From the NCBI RefSeq assembly GCF_036507355.1, contig NZ_AP027877.1: a stretch of 64,000 bases of DNA. The stretch is one strand, 5' to 3'. The translations under genes were made by a program, and so were the position numbers. This document shows, in pieces, positions 23,491 through 30,900 of this stretch (within the stretch, counting starts at the first letter, position 1; each line of letters starts with the position of its first letter). This stretch comes from Escherichia coli. Lineage in GTDB: Bacteria; Pseudomonadota; Gammaproteobacteria; Enterobacterales; Enterobacteriaceae. Under the pieces are notes generated by a model. That model worked only from the letters and a program-made list of their open reading frames with translations. It was not told the origin of the DNA and did not search any database.

Positions 23491-24774
23491 ATGACAGAAG
23501 CGATGAAGATTACCCTCTCTACCCAACCTGCCGACGCGCGCTGGGGAGAAAAAGCAACTTACAGCATTAATAATGACGGCATTACCCTGCATTTGAACGG
23601 GGTAGACGATCTGGGGCTGATCCAGCGTGCGGCGCGCAAGATTGACGGTCTGGGCATCAAGCATGTTCAGTTAAGCGGTGAAGGCTGGGATGCGGATCGC
23701 TGCTGGGCATTCTGGCAAGGTTACAAAGCCCCGAAAGGCACGCGTAAAGTGGAGTGGCCGGATCTGGACGATGCCCAGCGACAGGAACTGGATAACCGCC
23801 TGTTGATCATCGACTGGGTGCGTGACACCATCAACGCACCGGCGGAAGAGCTGGGGCCATCGCAACTGGCACAGCGTGCTGTTGATCTGATCAGCAACGT
23901 CGCAGGCGATCGTGTGACTTATCGGATCACCAAAGGCGAAGATCTGCGTGAGCAAGGTTATATGGGGCTGCACACCGTCGGACGCGGTTCAGAACGTTCT
24001 TCGGTATTGCTGGCGCTGGATTACAACCCAACTGGCGATAAAGAAGCGCCAGTGTACGCGTGCCTGGTAGGTAAAGGTATCACTTTTGACTCCGGCGGCT
24101 ACAGCATCAAACAGACTGCGTTTATGGACTCGATGAAGTCGGACATGGGCGGCGCGGCAACGGTTACCGGGGCGCTGGCATTTGCCATTACGCGCGGACT
24201 GAACAAGCGCGTGAAGCTGTTCCTCTGCTGTGCGGATAACCTGATTAGCGGCAATGCGTTCAAGCTGGGCGATATCATCACCTATCGCAACGGTAAAAAA
24301 GTTGAAGTGATGAACACTGATGCCGAAGGGCGTCTGGTGCTGGCCGATGGTCTGATTGATGCCAGTGCGCAGAAACCGGAACTGATCATTGATGCGGCGA
24401 CCCTCACCGGGGCGGCGAAAACTGCGCTGGGTAATGATTATCACGCGTTGTTCAGTTTTGACGATGCGCTTGCCGGTCGTTTGCTGGCGAGTGCCTCACA
24501 AGAGAACGAACCATTCTGGCGTCTGCCGCTGGCGGAATTCCACCGCAGCCAGCTGCCGTCTAACTTTGCCGAACTGAACAATACCGGAAGCGCGGCGTAT
24601 CCGGCAGGCGCGAGCACGGCGGCGGGCTTCCTGTCGCACTTTGTTGAGAACTATCAGCAAGGCTGGCTGCATATCGACTGCTCGGCGACTTACCGTAAAG
24701 CGCCGGTTGAACAGTGGTCTGCGGGTGCTACGGGACTTGGTGTGCGCACGATTGCTAATCTGTTAACGGCGTAA
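23491..24774 (+). CDS. pepB: Aminopeptidase B (M17 leucyl aminopeptidase family)
   Basis: Start [10 protein letters not shown] with AAGGA SD (427 aa); M17 signature NTDAEGRL; ORF track start 23257 is an upstream in-frame extension. Confidence 0.93.
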
Positions 24775-24780
24775 ACTAAT

Positions 24781-24888
<108 letters not shown>

Positions 24889-24916
24889 CCCGAACGTTGA
24901 ATGAATTGTGGTTCTT

Positions 24917-25693
24917 ATGTCCGAAACAAAAAATGAACTTGAAGACCTGCTGGAAAAAGCAGCAACCGAACCGGCGCACCGCCCGGCTTTTTTCCGTACT
25001 CTACTGGAATCCACCGTCTGGGTGCCTGGTACGGCGGCGCAGGGCGAGGCTGTGGTTGAAGAGAGCGCGCTTGATTTACAGCACTGGGAAAAAGAAGACG
25101 GCACCAGCGTCATTCCTTTTTTTACCTCGTTAGAAGCACTTCAACAGGCGGTTGACGGCGAACAGGCATTTGTTGTAATGCCCGTTCGCACATTGTTTGA
25201 GATGACCCTTGGCGAAACGCTCTTCCTTAATGCCAAACTGCCAACCGGTAAAGAATTTATGCCGCGTGAAATCAGTTTGTTGATTGGTGAAGAGGGAAAT
25301 CCGCTGAGCAGTCAGGAAGTACTGGAAGGCGGCGAATCGCTGATATTATCGGAAGTCGCAGAGCCGCCAGCACAAATGATTGATTCACTCACCACCTTAT
25401 TTAAAACCATTAAACCAGTGAAGCGTGCTTTTATCTGTTCAATTAAAGAGAACGAAGAGGCACAGCCTAATTTACTTATTGGTATTGAAGCCGATGGTGA
25501 TATCGAAGAAATTATTCAGGCGGCGGGAAGTGTAGCAACCGATACATTACCTGGCGATGAACCAATCGATATTTGCCAGGTGAAAAAAGGGGAAAAAGGA
25601 ATTAGCCATTTTATTACCGAACATATTGCGCCATTCTATGAACGTCGTTGGGGTGGTTTTTTGCGTGACTTTAAACAGAACCGGATAATCTAA
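24917..25693 (+). CDS. sseB: SseB (enhanced serine sensitivity protein B)
   Basis: ORF MSETKNELEDLL (258 aa); the ORF track start at 24908 is a GTG; synteny next to pepB. Confidence 0.88.
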   Translation: MSETKNELEDLLEKAATEPAHRPAFFRTLLESTVWVPGTAAQGEAVVEESALDLQHWEKEDGTSVIPFFTSLEALQQAVDGEQAFVVMPVRTLFEMTLGETLFLNAKLPTGKEFMPREISLLIGEEGNPLSSQEVLEGGESLILSEVAEPPAQMIDSLTTLFKTIKPVKRAFICSIKENEEAQPNLLIGIEADGDIEEIIQAAGSVATDTLPGDEPIDICQVKKGEKGISHFITEHIAPFYERRWGGFLRDFKQNRII

Positions 25694-25694
25694 A

Positions 25695-26000
25695 ATATGC
25701 CGCCCCAAAGGGCGGCATTCGGGCTTACCTGCTGTTCTGAAGGTTGTTAACCACCAGTAAATTGTTGCCGGAGAGACTCAGGTTATTATTTACCTCGGTT
25801 AACAGCGCACCAGAAACAATAAGTACGATACAAAAGCACCGTATCTTCATTGTGCGGTCCATGCGAAGACCGCATCACGACAGCACCACTGGCGATATTG
25901 CCGCGATAGCAAGCGCTGTGAAACACCTGCATTTACGGCCACGGAACATCCTTTCCTAAAGCCAGCGCCCGTTTGCGAGACGGCGGAAAGGGCCGGTGTC
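25695..26000 (-). ncRNA. ryfA: RyfA-like RNA, copy 1 (mRNA for a small hydrophobic protein); 5' end not determined
   Basis: Minus-strand hairpin gccgccc-tttg-gggcggc plus AUAUUUUA tail at about 25695-25722; location between sseB and sseA as for K-12 ryfA. Confidence 0.5.
25725..25850 (-). CDS. timP: TimP-like small hydrophobic protein, 41 aa (MKIRCFCIVLIVSGALLTEVNNNLSLSGNNLLVVNNLQNSR), copy 1
   Basis: Intact ATG...TAA ORF on the minus strand, below the 60-aa ORF-track cutoff; hydrophobic N-terminus; terminator immediately downstream; weak SD. Confidence 0.5.
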   Translation of the reverse strand: MKIRCFCIVLIVSGALLTEVNNNLSLSGNNLLVVNNLQNSR

Positions 26001-26034
26001 GATAATACGCTAAATAAACAATAATTACTCTCTT

Positions 26035-26063
26035 TTGCTTGACAAAAAGAGAGTTGCTGGCGA
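26035..26063 (+). promoter_or_regulatory. Candidate sigma70 promoter of the divergent sRNA, copy 1
   Basis: TTGACA at 26035-26040, 17-bp spacer, GAATAT at 26058-26063. Confidence 0.4.
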
Positions 26064-26067
26064 ATAT

Positions 26068-26177
26068 TGCTCTGCTGTGAAGCACCTGCGTTGCTCATGC
26101 AACACAAGTCAATCTGCTGGAGAGGCCGCGAACCAAACCGGCAACAAATAACCGCCTGATTTTGGCGGTTTTTTGTT
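26068..26177 (+). ncRNA. TimR/RyfB-like antisense sRNA candidate, copy 1
   Basis: Promoter-like element upstream, terminator ccgcc-tgattt-ggcgg-TTTTTT at 26150-26177; 5' segment complementary to the copy-1 RyfA 5' UTR. Confidence 0.45.
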
Positions 26178-26378
26178 GCTTAAAGAAAGTGAATTTACAT
26201 GTTTAAGTAATATCTTTTACCGGTTAGTATTTTTAATATTGAGCGGGATTTGTTTATATTTGTCTGAATTCGGACTAATAAGCCAGGTCATTTTAATATC
26301 GAACATATTGCGCCATTCTATGAACGTCGCTGGGATGGTTTTTTGCGTGACTTTAAACAGAACCGGATAATCTAAAAT

Positions 26379-26680
26379 ATGCCGCCCCAAAGGGCGGCAT
26401 TCGGGCTTACCTGCTGTTCTGAAGGTTGTTAACCACCAGTAAATTGTCGCCGGAGAGACTCCGGTTATTATTTACCTCGGTTAACAGCGCACCAGAAACA
26501 ATAAGTACGATACAGAAGCACCGTATCTTCATTGTGCGGTCCATGCGAAGACCGCATCAAGACAGCACCACTGGCGATATTGCCGCGATAGCAAGCACTG
26601 TGGGGTGCCTGTATTTACGGTCATGGAACATCCTTTCCTAAAGCCATCGCCCGTTTGCGAGACGGCGAAAAGGGCCATTA
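26379..26680 (-). ncRNA. ryfA: RyfA-like RNA, copy 2; 5' end not determined
   Basis: Second copy of the same terminator hairpin and ORF-bearing block. Confidence 0.45.
26407..26532 (-). CDS. timP: TimP-like small hydrophobic protein, 41 aa, copy 2 (two substitutions relative to copy 1: L24R, N29D)
   Basis: Intact ORF MKIRCFCIVLIVSGALLTEVNNNRSLSGDNLLVVNNLQNSR on the minus strand. Confidence 0.5.
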   Translation of the reverse strand: MKIRCFCIVLIVSGALLTEVNNNRSLSGDNLLVVNNLQNSR

Positions 26681-26756
26681 AGAATAATACTCTCATGTTT
26701 GAATAATTACTCTGTTTATTATCTTGACACAGCCAGGCATAAAAGAGAGTATTTCA

Positions 26757-26862
26757 ACACTGTGGGGTGCCTGCGTTGCTCCGGCAACACAAGTCAACCT
26801 GCTGGAAAGGCCGCGAACCAGACCAGCAATAAAAAACCGCCAAATTCGGCGGTTTTTTATTG
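26757..26862 (+). ncRNA. TimR/RyfB-like antisense sRNA candidate, copy 2
   Basis: TTGACA at 26724-26729; terminator accgcc-aaattc-ggcggt-TTTTTT at 26835-26862 (bidirectional, also serves sseA); 5' segment has a perfect 16-nt match to the copy-2 RyfA 5' UTR. Confidence 0.45.
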
Positions 26863-26874
26863 CCTGTAAAATAC

Positions 26875-27720
26875 TTATTTCACTGGCTCAACCGGTAAAT
26901 CTGCCCGCGCGCCCCATTCACTCCATGCGCCGTCGTACAGTTTCACGTTTGGCACATCCAGCGTCGCGAGTGCTAACAAAACCACGGCTGCCGTTACACC
27001 AGAGCCGCAGCTGACGATAATTGGTTTGTCGTAGCTGACGCCGCGACCAAAAAATATCGCATCCAGTTCATCGGTCGTTTTTAGTTCGCCTTCGCGCACC
27101 AGTTCCGTCCACGGAACGTTCAATGCACCGGGAATATGTCCGCGACGTAAACCTGGGCGAGGTTCATCAACTTCTGCGTTAAAACGTGCAGCCGGGCGGG
27201 CATCAATAATTTGCGCCGTATTTTCATGGCTTGCCAATAACACATCGGTTACTTTCACCACTGCTTCAGGATTAAACGCGGCGTTAAACTCTCCTTCCGG
27301 CAGCTCTACTGCACCTTCTTCTAACAACAGATCATCGCGCTGCCAGCCTGCAAGTCCACCCCCCAGAATCGACACTTTCTCTACACCAAAGGTGCGCAGC
27401 ATCCACCATGCTCGTGGGGCTGAGAAAAGATTACCTTCGTCATAGACAATCAGGTGCTTATCCTGGTTAACGCCTAATTCACGCATCGCCACGGCGAACG
27501 TTTCCGGGCGCGGCAGCATGTGCGGAAGCGGGGAAGTGTGATCAGAAAGCGCTTCGATATCAAAAAACACTGCGCCGGGAATATGTCCATTCAGATACTC
27601 CTGAGCAACGTTACGATCTTCCTGTCCAGGCGACGCCATGCGGGCATCGATAATCTGAATTTCCGGGTCATCAATATGTTCGGCGAGCCAGTCGGCTCCT
27701 ACAAACCATGTCGTGGACAT
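26875..27720 (-). CDS. sseA: 3-mercaptopyruvate sulfurtransferase (tandem rhodanese domains)
   Basis: Start MSTTWFVGADWL (281 aa); rhodanese active-site Cys (CGSGVTA); ORF track extends upstream to 27879. Confidence 0.93.
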   Translation of the reverse strand: MSTTWFVGADWLAEHIDDPEIQIIDARMASPGQEDRNVAQEYLNGHIPGAVFFDIEALSDHTSPLPHMLPRPETFAVAMRELGVNQDKHLIVYDEGNLFSAPRAWWMLRTFGVEKVSILGGGLAGWQRDDLLLEEGAVELPEGEFNAAFNPEAVVKVTDVLLASHENTAQIIDARPAARFNAEVDEPRPGLRRGHIPGALNVPWTELVREGELKTTDELDAIFFGRGVSYDKPIIVSCGSGVTAAVVLLALATLDVPNVKLYDGAWSEWGARADLPVEPVK

Positions 27721-27926
27721 AGGCATCTCCATTTTTGCCGGGGTTAGGCTAAATTGTCGGATGTTTAGTGAAAAGCGACAAGCAAAAGAGGCTGATTTGG
27801 CTGTCTGAGCCACAATTCTCACTAAAATTCGGATTGTATGGGCGTGATACTGAATTACATAACGTAAATTCTCACGCATAATAATTATTCGACGTTGCTA
27901 ACGGGCCATTGTGGCAGGGATGAAAA

Positions 27927-30900
27927 ATGAAAAAGTTACGCGTAGCCGCCTGCATGCTAATGCTGGCGCTGGCAGGGTGCGACAACAACGATAACGCGCC
28001 AACAGCGGTGAAAAAAGATGCGCCTTCTGAAGTTACTAAAGCGGCCTCTTCAGAAAACGCGAGTTCAGCAAAACTCTCCGTGCCGGAGCGACAAAAACTG
28101 GCACAACAGAGTGTAGGTAAGGCGCTGACATTACTGGATCTCTCTGAAGTCCAACTTAATGGTGCAGCCACGCTGGTGCTGACGTTCTCCATCCCTCTCG
28201 ACCCGGATCAGGATTTCTCACGCGTTATTCATGTCGTCGATAAAAAAAGCGGCAAAGTGGATGGTGCCTGGGAGTTGTCAGATAATCTTAAAGAGCTGCG
28301 TTTACGCCACCTCGAACCGAAACGTGATTTGATCGTTACTATTGGCAAAGAGGTCAAAGCACTCAACAACGCAACCTTCAGTAAAGATTACGAAAAAACT
28401 ATAACTACCCGCGATATCCAGCCCAGCGTCGGTTTTGCCAGCCGTGGTTCGCTGCTGCCTGGTAAAGTCGTTGAAGGGCTGCCGGTAATGGCGCTCAACG
28501 TTAATAATGTCGATGTTAACTTCTTCCGCGTTAAGCCAGAATCTCTGCCAGCATTCATTAGCCAATGGGAATACCGCAATTCGCTGGCGAACTGGCAGTC
28601 AGACAAACTGCTGCAGATGGCGGATCTGGTCTACACCGGACGGTTTGATCTCAATCCTGCGCGTAACACCCGTGAAAAATTATTGCTGCCGCTGGGCGAT
28701 ATCAAACCGCTTCAGCAGGCGGGCGTGTATCTGGCTGTGATGAATCAGGCTGGACGTTACGATTACAGTAATCCCGCGACGCTGTTTACGTTAAGTGATA
28801 TCGGCGTTTCAGCTCACCGTTATCACAATCGTCTGGATATCTTTACCCAAAGTCTGGAAAACGGCGCGGCCCAGCAAGGAATTGAAGTCTCTTTATTAAA
28901 TGAGAAAGGGCAGACTCTGACTCAGGCAACCAGTGACGCTCAGGGGCATGTGCAGCTGGAAAATGATAAAAATGCGGCATTACTGCTGGCACGTAAAGAC
29001 GGTCAGACAACGCTACTCGATTTAAAACTTCCGGCGCTGGACTTAGCAGAATTTAACATTGCAGGTGCGCCAGGCTATAGCAAACAGTTTTTCATGTTTG
29101 GCCCGCGCGATCTTTATCGCCCGGGTGAAACGGTAATCCTCAATGGTTTGCTGCGTGATGCAGACGGTAAAGCGTTGCCCAATCAACCCATCAAGTTAGA
29201 CGTGATTAAACCCGATGGGCAGGTACTCAGGAGCGTCGTTAGTCAGCCGGAAAATGGCCTCTACCACTTTACCTGGCCACTCGATAGCAATGCGGCAACC
29301 GGTATGTGGCATATTCGCGCTAACACGGGCGATAACCAGTATCGGATGTGGGATTTCCACGTCGAAGATTTTATGCCAGAGCGTATGGCGCTGAATCTGA
29401 CCGGTGAGAAAACCCCGCTTACGCCGAATGAAGAAGTGAAATTCTCCGTGGTGGGATACTACCTGTACGGTGCACCTGCTAATGGTAATACTTTGCAAGG
29501 GCAACTTTTCCTGCGCCCACTGCGTGAGGCTGTGTCAGCCTTACCTGGTTTTGAATTCGGCGATATAGCTGCCGAAAACCTTTCCCGCACGCTGGATGAA
29601 GTTCAGTTGACGCTGGATGATAAAGGGCGCGGCGAAGTTTCTACAGAAAGCCAGTGGAAGGAAACGCATTCCCCATTACAGGTTATTTTCCAGGGTAGTT
29701 TGCTGGAATCGGGCGGTCGCCCAGTGACGCGCCGCGCTGAGCAGGCTATCTGGCCTGCCGATGCATTGCCGGGGCTCCGTCCGCAGTTCGCCTCGAAATC
29801 GGTTTACGATTATCGCACTGACAGCACGGTGAAACAGCCCATTGTTGATGAAGGCAGTAACGCCGCTTTTGACATCGTTTATAGCGATGCGCAAGGCGTG
29901 AAAAAAGCCGTGTCGGGCTTGCAGGTGCGCCTGATTCGCGAACGCCGCGATTACTACTGGAACTGGTCAGAAGATGAAGGCTGGCAGTCACAGTTTGATC
30001 AAAAAGATCTGATCGAAAATGAACAAACTCTGGATCTGAAAGCGGACGAAACCGGCAAGGTCAGTTTTCCGGTAGAGTGGGGAGCTTATCGTCTGGAAGT
30101 CAAAGCGCCGAATGAAGCGGTCAGTAGTGTTCGTTTCTGGGCTGGCTATAGCTGGCAGGACAACAGCGACGGGAGCGGTGCCGTGCGACCCGACCGTGTC
30201 ACGCTGAAACTGGATAAAGCCAGTTATCGCCCTGGCGATACCATTAAGTTGCATATTGCCGCGCCAACGGCGGGTAAAGGTTATGCGATGGTCGAGTCCA
30301 GTGAAGGGCCGCTGTGGTGGCAAGAGATTGATGTTCCGGCTCAAGGGCTGGATCTGACGATTCCGGTCGATAAAACCTGGAATCGTCATGATCTTTATTT
30401 GAGTACGCTGGTGGTGCGTCCTGGCGATAAATCTCGCTCCGCGACGCCAAAACGCGCGGTTGGTGTGTTGCATCTGCCGCTTGGTGATGAAAACCGTCGC
30501 CTCGATTTGGCGCTGGAAACACCAGCAAAAATGCGTCCCAATCAACCATTAACCGTGAAAATTAAAGCCAGCACTAAAAATGGCGAGAAGCCTAAACAGG
30601 TGAATGTGCTGGTGTCTGCCGTTGATAGTGGTGTGCTGAATATTACTGACTACGTCACGCCAGATCCGTGGCAGGCGTTCTTTGGTCAGAAACGCTATGG
30701 CGCAGACATTTACGATATTTACGGTCAGGTTATTGAAGGTCAGGGGCGTCTGGCAGCTCTGCGTTTCGGTGGCGATGGTGATGAGCTGAAACGTGGTGGT
30801 AAACCGCCGGTCAATCACGTCAATATTGTCGCGCAGCAGGCGCTGCCGGTAACGCTCAACGAACAGGGCGAAGGCTCGGTTACACTGCCGATTGGCGATT

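Follow-up and report, generated by a model that had tools for sequence, protein, structure and literature searches.

The convergent genes sseB (plus strand) and sseA (minus strand) of Escherichia coli are separated by 1181 bp in the stretch of DNA analysed here (64,000 nucleotides of contig NZ_AP027877.1, assembly GCF_036507355.1; hereafter the window), and this interval holds two tandem timPR units. Four hairpins located in the interval are very probably the Rho-independent terminators of four small transcripts. Hairpin H3, on the sseA side, is likely to act in both directions; hairpin H1, on the sseB side, would serve RyfA only, and hairpin H2, behind the small RNA (sRNA) of unit 1, would be a weak back-stop on the minus strand. 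Each copy of the unit would give rise to a RyfA/timP messenger RNA (mRNA) of ~305 nt on the minus strand and to a divergent repressor sRNA of ~100 nt on the plus strand. For RyfA, the unit-1 sRNA and TimR, the terminator role is shown through their K-12 orthologues.

Hairpins and mapped RNA 3′ ends

The first-pass annotation of the sequence had reported three hairpins, H1, H2 and H3, which were recovered at essentially the same positions, fold on both strands and have the stable GC-rich stem of intrinsic terminators. H1 comprises a stem of 9 bp with seven GC pairs (25697-25705 paired with 25710-25718, ATGCCGCCC/GGGCGGCAT) closed by the loop CAAA, with a free energy of about -17 to -18 kcal/mol and a fold z-score in 51-nt windows of only -2.7 on the plus strand and -2.0 on the minus strand. 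As had been noticed before, it directly follows the sseB stop, beginning 3 nt past the TAA; 6 nt separate it from the timP stop. The assignment of this copy (H1a, 25697..25718) as the intrinsic terminator of RyfA/timP unit 1 is based on the folds, the tail scores, the K-12 RyfA 3′ end and the 3′ end of the Rfam ryfA model. The minus-strand tail, which is the RyfA sense, is U-rich (AUUUUAGAUU), with a moderate T score of 1.6-2.0. The plus-strand tail in the sense of sseB (UCGGGCUUAC / UCGGGCUUACC) is not U-rich and scores 1.0-1.1; UCGGGCUUACC has two or three U in its first 8 nt, a count that varies with the delimitation of the stem, so that sseB lacks a U-tract at this place. A fourth hairpin, H1b (26379..26400), absent from the first-pass annotation, is identical to H1a and sits behind an 87-nt pseudogene fragment of the sseB 3′ end. 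Folding and the 3′ end of the second Rfam ryfA match identify it as the RyfA/timP terminator of unit 2.

H2, the terminator of the unit-1 sRNA according to folds and T-tail scores, has a core at 26150-26170 (AACCGCC/GGCGGTT) and an extended stem at 26140..26180 (GCAACAAAT.../...TTTTTGTTGC), with fold z-scores of -5.2 (plus) and -5.0 (minus). Its plus-strand tail (UUUUUUGUUGC / UUUUUUGUU) is U-rich, with a T score of 4.92. The U-run of the minus-strand tail (UUAUUUGUUGCC, T score 3.27) is interrupted because the A-run reads AAATAA in the window, whereas K-12 has A6 at this position; T6 stands opposite.

H3, the TimR terminator facing sseA, has its core at 26837-26852 (CCGCC/GGCGG, 26837-26841 and 26848-26852), flanked by A6 (26831-26836) and T6 (26853-26858), and extends through an outer GCAAT/ATTGC stem to 26826..26863. 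It has the lowest fold z-scores of the three hairpins, -7.3 on the plus and -6.8 on the minus strand, and its tails are symmetric, with T scores of 4.84 in the TimR sense (UUUUUUAUU / UUUUUUAUUGC) and 4.87 in the sseA sense (UUUUUUAUUGC). The extended stem lies 11 nt past the sseA stop. The assignment follows from folds, T-tail scores and conservation across genera.

RNA 3′ ends were taken from the curated Term-seq data of K-12 in three growth conditions (PMC7815308, supplement 1), and mapped to the window by orthology. The RyfA 3′ end at 2654157(+), found in all three conditions (PMC7815308), corresponds to window position 25693, in the U4 tract after H1, where it overlaps the sseB stop codon by 1-2 nt. 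Together with two full-length matches to RF00126 (314 and 315 bits), this agrees with the first-pass reading that a RyfA-like minus-strand transcript ends at H1 with a U-rich tail. A very strong 3′ end at 2653679(-), labelled 'antisense IS128' and also present in all three conditions (PMC7815308), falls on window position 26176, in the U6 tract of H2, and represents the end of the unit-1 sRNA. The TimR 3′ end at 2653354(-), recorded in one condition (PMC7815308), falls on 26860, in the U6 tract of H3. Each of H1, H2 and H3 is placed between two convergent transcription units, with Term-seq ends coming from one strand only. In Salmonella, loss-of-function mutations in the timP 3′ untranslated region fall in the terminator stem (PMC13000454).

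The search for terminator-like sites in 24500-28500 returned 15 sites compared with 5.7 +/- 2.1 in shuffled sequences. It caught H2 on both strands but H1 on the minus strand alone, and overlooked H3, since the extended stem takes up the T-run of this hairpin. The d-scores of the d'Aubenton-Carafa type shift with the stem definition and with modern energies, and were used for comparison only.

Several observations weigh against the assignment of the four hairpins given above. Among the curated K-12 Term-seq 3′ ends of the three conditions, none is listed for sseA, sseB or IS128 (PMC7815308); for sseA and sseB this may only reflect low expression of the two genes. The SMRT-Cappable-seq supplements likewise contain no entry for sseA or sseB 3′ ends. 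The 3′-end data come from K-12, in which the second ryfA is deleted, and not from the two-copy sequence of the window. The values of the tail scores and d-scores vary with the stem limits chosen and with modern energy parameters, and the RyfA terminator, despite its real 3′ end, has a borderline d of ~0. Finally, K-12 has a Rho-termination region at 2653187(-), antisense to sseA, with a Rho score of 3.6 and p = 6e-6 (PMC7815308), which corresponds to about 27027 on the plus strand of the window, inside antisense sseA. The TimR terminator is hence leaky in its own direction, and some of the read-through is cleared by Rho inside antisense sseA.

Direction of termination on the sseB and sseA sides

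For comparison, 80 Enterobacteriaceae loci were gathered with SseB as query. Many genera without timPR have sseB and sseA converging within 27-60 nt on one hairpin, for example an A5-stem-T5 in Yokenella. Since these relatives share one hairpin, a shared terminator is the ordinary condition of the sseB-sseA pair. Among carriers of timPR (Escherichia, some Citrobacter, Salmonella and Superficieibacter), the H1 core GCCGCCC-N3-5-GGGCGGC is invariant. The first 8 nt of the H1 tail in these carriers contain four to seven U in the RyfA sense versus one or two in the sseB sense, which is G/C-rich despite 6-8 available non-coding nucleotides; the sseB-sense T score is 0.6-1.2 in Citrobacter, Salmonella and Superficieibacter. 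Since the tail is U-rich in the one sense and G/C-rich in the other, H1 is predicted from its sequence to be a canonical terminator in the RyfA direction only. The first-pass annotation had H1 shared with sseB, which these data do not bear out: an sseB-sense U-tract is missing in all five genera examined and an sseB 3′ end is missing from the records, so that any sharing would be non-canonical. In Escherichia whittamii (L004, 3258-3433), ~175 bp of unrelated sequence with a hairpin of its own lie between the sseB stop and the ryfA terminator, and sseB and RyfA therefore do not abut there.

The timP mRNA is abundant (PMC7667032), and in the collision model of Wang et al. bidirectional termination needs a hairpin, but not the features of an intrinsic terminator, if the opposing unit is heavily transcribed (bioRxiv 10.1101/2022.10.23.513370). 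Given both, a two-sided use of H1 is possible, although a stop of sseB at this hairpin would depend on pausing or on colliding polymerases alone. Polymerases leaving sseB would meet a strong hairpin that lacks a U-tract, pause, and then be dislodged when they run head-on into the abundant transcription of the convergent RyfA. On its sseB side, H1 would then fit the class of that model in which a hairpin is required that does not resemble an intrinsic terminator. Alternatively, the polymerases would read on antisense to timP up to the co-directional sRNA terminator ~450 nt downstream. That the U-tract is absent on the sseB side for this very function, with sseB reading antisense through timP to that terminator, seems improbable to us. 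With regard to a possible Rho-dependent end of sseB, the plus strand at 25800-25960 is only mildly richer in C than in G (skew -0.16 to -0.19), and K-12 lists no Rho region there.

These observations bear on the possibility, doubtful in our judgement, that every hairpin is an efficient shared bidirectional terminator, with H1 serving sseB and RyfA, H3 serving sseA and TimR, and H2 having once served sseA and the sRNA. Such a general sharing would agree with the position of every hairpin between convergent units, with the symmetry of H3, with the single hairpin used for sseB and sseA by relatives without timPR, and with collision-driven termination, for which a hairpin opposite an abundantly transcribed timP would be enough. 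However, it leaves unexplained why the sseB-sense tail of H1 has one or two U in 8 nt across genera, with its 6-8 non-coding nucleotides G/C-rich. In C. werkmanii (L007, 3775-3990) and C. braakii (L010, 1048-1245), a deletion running from mid-H1 to the promoter has removed ryfA/timP and, with it, half of H1, without a replacement for sseB. The absence of sseB and sseA from the curated Term-seq ends, and the failure of strand-specific probes to detect IS128, the sole RNA proposed for the minus side of H2, in K-12, also speak against it. In both Citrobacter species TimR persists as an orphan, apparently intact and with the symmetric terminator beside sseA.

A two-sided architecture had been implied for each hairpin; the A-tract/U-tract form of two-way terminators is present in H3 (A6/T6), nearly so in H2, and not in H1. 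For H3 it is plausible that TimR and sseA share a bidirectional terminator, considering the architecture, the distance to the sseA stop codon and how palindromes of this type generally behave. H3 would then stop sseA transcription as well, and shield the timR and timP promoters from sseA read-through. The earlier proposal that H3 serves both sseA and the unit-2 sRNA thus stands for its A6/T6 design and for the TimR end in the U-tract, while its sseA half, with the sseA 3′ end unrecorded, comes from the architecture.

The TimR-type terminators keep the A6-8/T6-8 symmetry, with both T scores at 4.8-5.4, and a long stem in every genus compared. Compensatory changes are found in the core (CCGCC/GGCGG versus CCGCTC/GAGCGG) and in the outer stem (CAAT/ATTG versus CAAC/GTTG versus CAC/GTG). 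The symmetry was judged from folds of each sequence, as a MAFFT alignment placed the 3′ arms out of register owing to variable loop and T-run lengths. It is retained in Salmonella, where sseA is 95 nt away behind a repetitive extragenic palindromic (REP) element, and in Superficieibacter (L058), where sseA is ~1.6 kb away and another minus-strand open reading frame (ORF) of 248 aa ends 45 nt off. As far as can be read from these loci, the A/T symmetry always occurs in a convergent context, yet it is no indicator of sseA adjacency.

From the same comparison it could be argued that the hairpins serve the small RNAs only, with the A-run stabilising and lengthening the 3′ hairpin of the sRNA rather than supplying the opposite strand with a U-tract, and with sseA and sseB ended by Rho or elsewhere. 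The compensatory changes that keep symmetry and extended stem whether sseA is 11-30 nt, 95 nt or ~1.6 kb away would suit this explanation, as would the experimental 3′ ends, recorded for the small RNAs alone, and the action of Rho on read-through in the region. Nevertheless, a GC stem followed at once by a T6-T8 run suffices for intrinsic termination in either direction, and a minus-strand gene converges on the TimR terminator in every genus examined, be it sseA or, in Superficieibacter, the 248-aa ORF. We therefore consider an exclusive service to the small RNAs unlikely, and retain H3 as a probable two-way terminator.

H2 still stands in a convergent context, facing the unit-1 sRNA (plus strand) on one side and RyfA unit 2 (minus strand) on the other. 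RyfA unit 2 reaches its own terminator, H1b, ~200 nt earlier, so that on the minus strand H2 would be at most a weaker back-stop for read-through of RyfA unit 2. The same architecture as in H3 had been attributed to H2; its symmetric design is indeed kept, whereas the A-run is broken (AAATAA) and the minus-strand U-run is interrupted.

The full model of IS128 (RF00125) matches the window at 26132-26342 on the minus strand with 228.6 bits, at the junction of the two timPR units, and spans the antisense of the unit-1 sRNA terminator, an AT-rich filler and the sseB 3′ fragment. Strand-specific northern hybridisation found no IS128 RNA, only the antisense IS129/ECS011 of ~95-100 nt (PMC3175480). 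Term-seq similarly gives the antisense end only, and no expressed RNA was found on the modelled strand, which is the minus strand of the window. It therefore seems that the Rfam/EcoCyc entry IS128 describes a TimR paralogue on the wrong strand: the family was built on a strand without detected RNA, and the real transcript is the antisense TimR-like sRNA ending at H2. In K-12, the 5′ part of IS128 includes the first ~20 nt of the deleted second ryfA.

Repeat boundaries and copy-number forms

The two units align from 25606-26180 (unit 1) to 26288-26863 (unit 2). The sseB 3′ end, H1 and the greater part of ryfA are 97% identical, the promoter and sRNA part ~73%. The homology ends exactly after the extended terminator stem, at GTTGC|T (26180) in unit 1 and ATTGC|C (26863) in unit 2. 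The O157:H7 genome and the GTDB representative of E. coli carry a single unit of CACCC type directly between sseB and sseA, with the terminator abutting sseA. From the repeat boundary and these single-copy genomes it is supported, as far as sequence comparison goes, that the ancestral unit ended at the sseA-side terminator. The first-pass annotation had reached the same view from the symmetry of H2. Its conclusion holds on other grounds, and the symmetry, which remains constant even with sseA 95 nt or ~1.6 kb away, is no evidence of a former adjacency to sseA.

The duplication is not clean, as a filler of 108 bp sits between the units (26181..26288), which the view of the ancestral unit has to accommodate. 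This filler, delimited by the unit alignment and by composition, is AT-rich (25-28% GC), and neither unit 2 nor other genera have an equivalent. When the filler was aligned locally with what follows TimR in Salmonella, Superficieibacter, Citrobacter and E. whittamii, the scores stayed within the range of shuffles, the best being 21 compared with a shuffle mean of 15 (sd 2.2, max 23). It is present once in 2157 out of 5426 complete E. coli genomes. The K-12 form consists of unit 1 and the filler, with the second ryfA body deleted and the sseA-proximal timR retained. The intact two-copy form is rare, with ~80 genomes showing at least 95% identity over the whole 1361-nt query, a proxy for this form; a count of two-copy genomes with a junction query was set aside, as it was inflated by BLAST pieces joined from both units.

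The right end of the repeat falls on a palindrome, which would also be expected if the hairpins were REP-like palindromes or recombination scars instead of terminators. REP elements occupy the sseB-sseA gap in several Citrobacter species, and REP-related Rfam matches occur between pepB and sseB. None of the hairpins, however, matches the REP consensus-like GCCGGATG/CATCCGGC; they occur at a single locus, have RNA 3′ ends in their U-tracts, and are an integral part of the Rfam ryfA model. A REP identity of the hairpins was rejected on these grounds, and an origin as REP-like palindromes or scars is hardly credible. The REP-type palindromes (GCCGGATG...CATCCGGC) were seen in the short sseB-sseA gap of eight Citrobacter loci without timPR (L008, L009, L012, L014, L016, L018, L020 and L079). 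The REP-related Rfam matches in the window, naRNA4 and ES036, lie at 24769-24882.

The duplicated timPR locus and its significance

The window has the gene order pepB, sseB, intergenic interval, sseA and yfhM, which matches Escherichia and Shigella, and the order of timR, ryfA, timP, sseA and sseB in the K-12 annotation is unchanged. The sseB coding sequence (24917..25693, plus strand, TAA stop at 25691-25693), taken from the ORF list, encodes a protein 98% identical to the versions of K-12 MG1655, E. coli TB06052 and 86-24. The sseA coding sequence (26875..27720, minus strand, stop at 26875-26877), from the same list, encodes a protein with 100% identity to K-12 SseA. TB06052, the complete E. 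coli genome that comes closest in this region (99.1% identity), has two timP genes and a pseudogene fragment of sseB in its annotation.

RyfA/timP mRNA of unit 1 (25692..25996, minus strand) matches RF00126 over the full length with 313.8 bits, is 98% identical to K-12 ryfA b4440, and carries the variable region TGTTT of the 'ryfA2' type of Fris 2017. Its toxin ORF timP (25725..25850, minus strand; 41 aa, stop at 25725-27 in the ORF list) is the counterpart of K-12 timP b4812 and of the timP predicted in the 99%-identical TB06052 by the Prokaryotic Genome Annotation Pipeline (PGAP). Similar to unit 1, RyfA/timP mRNA of unit 2 (26374..26678, minus strand) is a full-length RF00126 match (315.1 bits); it has the variable region CACCC of the 'ryfA1-like' type and is 98% identical to the single copy of O157:H7 strain 86-24. 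The timP ORF of unit 2 (26407..26532, minus strand) is found in the ORF list and as PGAP timP in TB06052, and both 41-codon ORFs (MKIRCFCIVLIVSGALLTEV...) match annotated timP. The duplicated sseB 3′ fragment (26289..26375, plus strand; 87 nt including the stop), identified by tblastn to SseB residues 231-258, is also labelled a pseudogene by PGAP in TB06052. Salmonella enterica subsp. arizonae (L022) lacks the first ~80 nt of ryfA.

A TTGACA promoter-like site precedes a plus-strand sRNA of ~100 nt upstream of each ryfA. The unit-1 sRNA of TimR/RyfB type (26074..26176, plus strand) was located by its promoter-like site, TTGACA-18-AATATT at 26039-26068, by homology to unit 2 and K-12, and by the K-12 3′ end; it is the orthologue of K-12 IS129/ECS011. 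Its seed GCTGTGAAGCACCTGC and GCTGTGAAACACCTGC in ryfA form a cognate pair complementary at 15 of 16 positions, the odd one being a G-U pair. The TimR/RyfB sRNA of unit 2 (26759..26860, plus strand) is by alignment the positional orthologue of K-12 timR b4811 (2653356-2653455). Its seed CACTGTGGGGTGCCTG recurs at 26596-26611 in ryfA of unit 2, as a member of the 16-nt direct-repeat family D3, and is complementary at 16 of 16 positions.

In K-12 (L001 1380-1480, corresponding to window 26074-26176), the ryfA-adjacent sRNA has the seed region GCTGAGACGCGCTTGC. Fris 2017 lists four types of the ryfA variable region, and one of them, CGCGT, is found in the reverse complement of this seed region. 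The seed mismatches K-12's own ryfA (TGTTT), and the matching seed is found in the annotated timR, 400 bp away beside sseA. The mismatched sRNA gives a far stronger Term-seq 3′ end than timR. These observations point to mosaic recombination between the units, and the mismatched sRNA may be an orphan antitoxin.

The interval thus consists of two tandem timPR (ryfA/ryfB) modules of type I toxin-antitoxin-like kind, which is a known kind. Toxicity of TimP and its repression by the sRNA were demonstrated experimentally in Salmonella (PMC7667032), and RyfB1 lowers RyfA1 levels in S. dysenteriae (PMC5333039). As in the window, S. dysenteriae has a tandem ryfA1-ryfB1/ryfA2-ryfB2 arrangement between sseB and sseA, with the same set of genes, and its ryfA copies are 95% identical with a 5-nt variable region of TGTTT versus CACCC, like the ~305-nt pair described here (PMC5333039). 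The locus also corresponds to the timP/TimR toxin-repressor system of Salmonella and other enterobacteria (PMC7667032), and agrees with the published descriptions (Fris 2017; Andresen 2020) in the divergent ~100-nt sRNA of each copy and its ~16 nt of complementarity; the terminator follows the complementary sequence, as in other TimR homologues. No essential difference from timP/TimR was seen. The genes, the duplication, the cognate seed specificity and the RNA ends are already published or annotated, and the locus is an ordinary instance of its kind. Fris 2017 and Andresen 2020 do not treat the terminators as shared with sseA or sseB, and do not describe the 108-bp filler and the sseB fragment at the junction; we found no paper treating these hairpins as shared with either gene.

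As in the bidirectional terminators of E. coli, where one hairpin lies between convergent units with overlapping 3′ ends, H3 has the classic palindrome of A-tract and U-tract. Unlike convergent E. coli gene pairs, one partner at each hairpin is a small RNA and not an operon, and H1 is one-sided by sequence. Bidirectional terminators between convergent E. coli genes were reportedly described with SEnd-seq by Ju et al. in 2019.

The analysis gives four small transcripts of a duplicated toxin-antitoxin locus their correct boundaries, with little meaning beyond housekeeping, and tells which hairpins could plausibly shield the promoters of toxin and antitoxin against the genes on either side. If H3 stops sseA, the timR/timP control region is protected against read-through. 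If H1 fails to stop sseB, the read-through of sseB is antisense to the toxin mRNA; both are small points on the insulation of type I toxin loci. Should the latter be a function of the locus, such read-through would provide a long, perfectly complementary antisense RNA or transcriptional interference, and thereby a second layer of repression on the toxin mRNA, which in the two-copy locus would reach only the sseB-proximal copy of timP.

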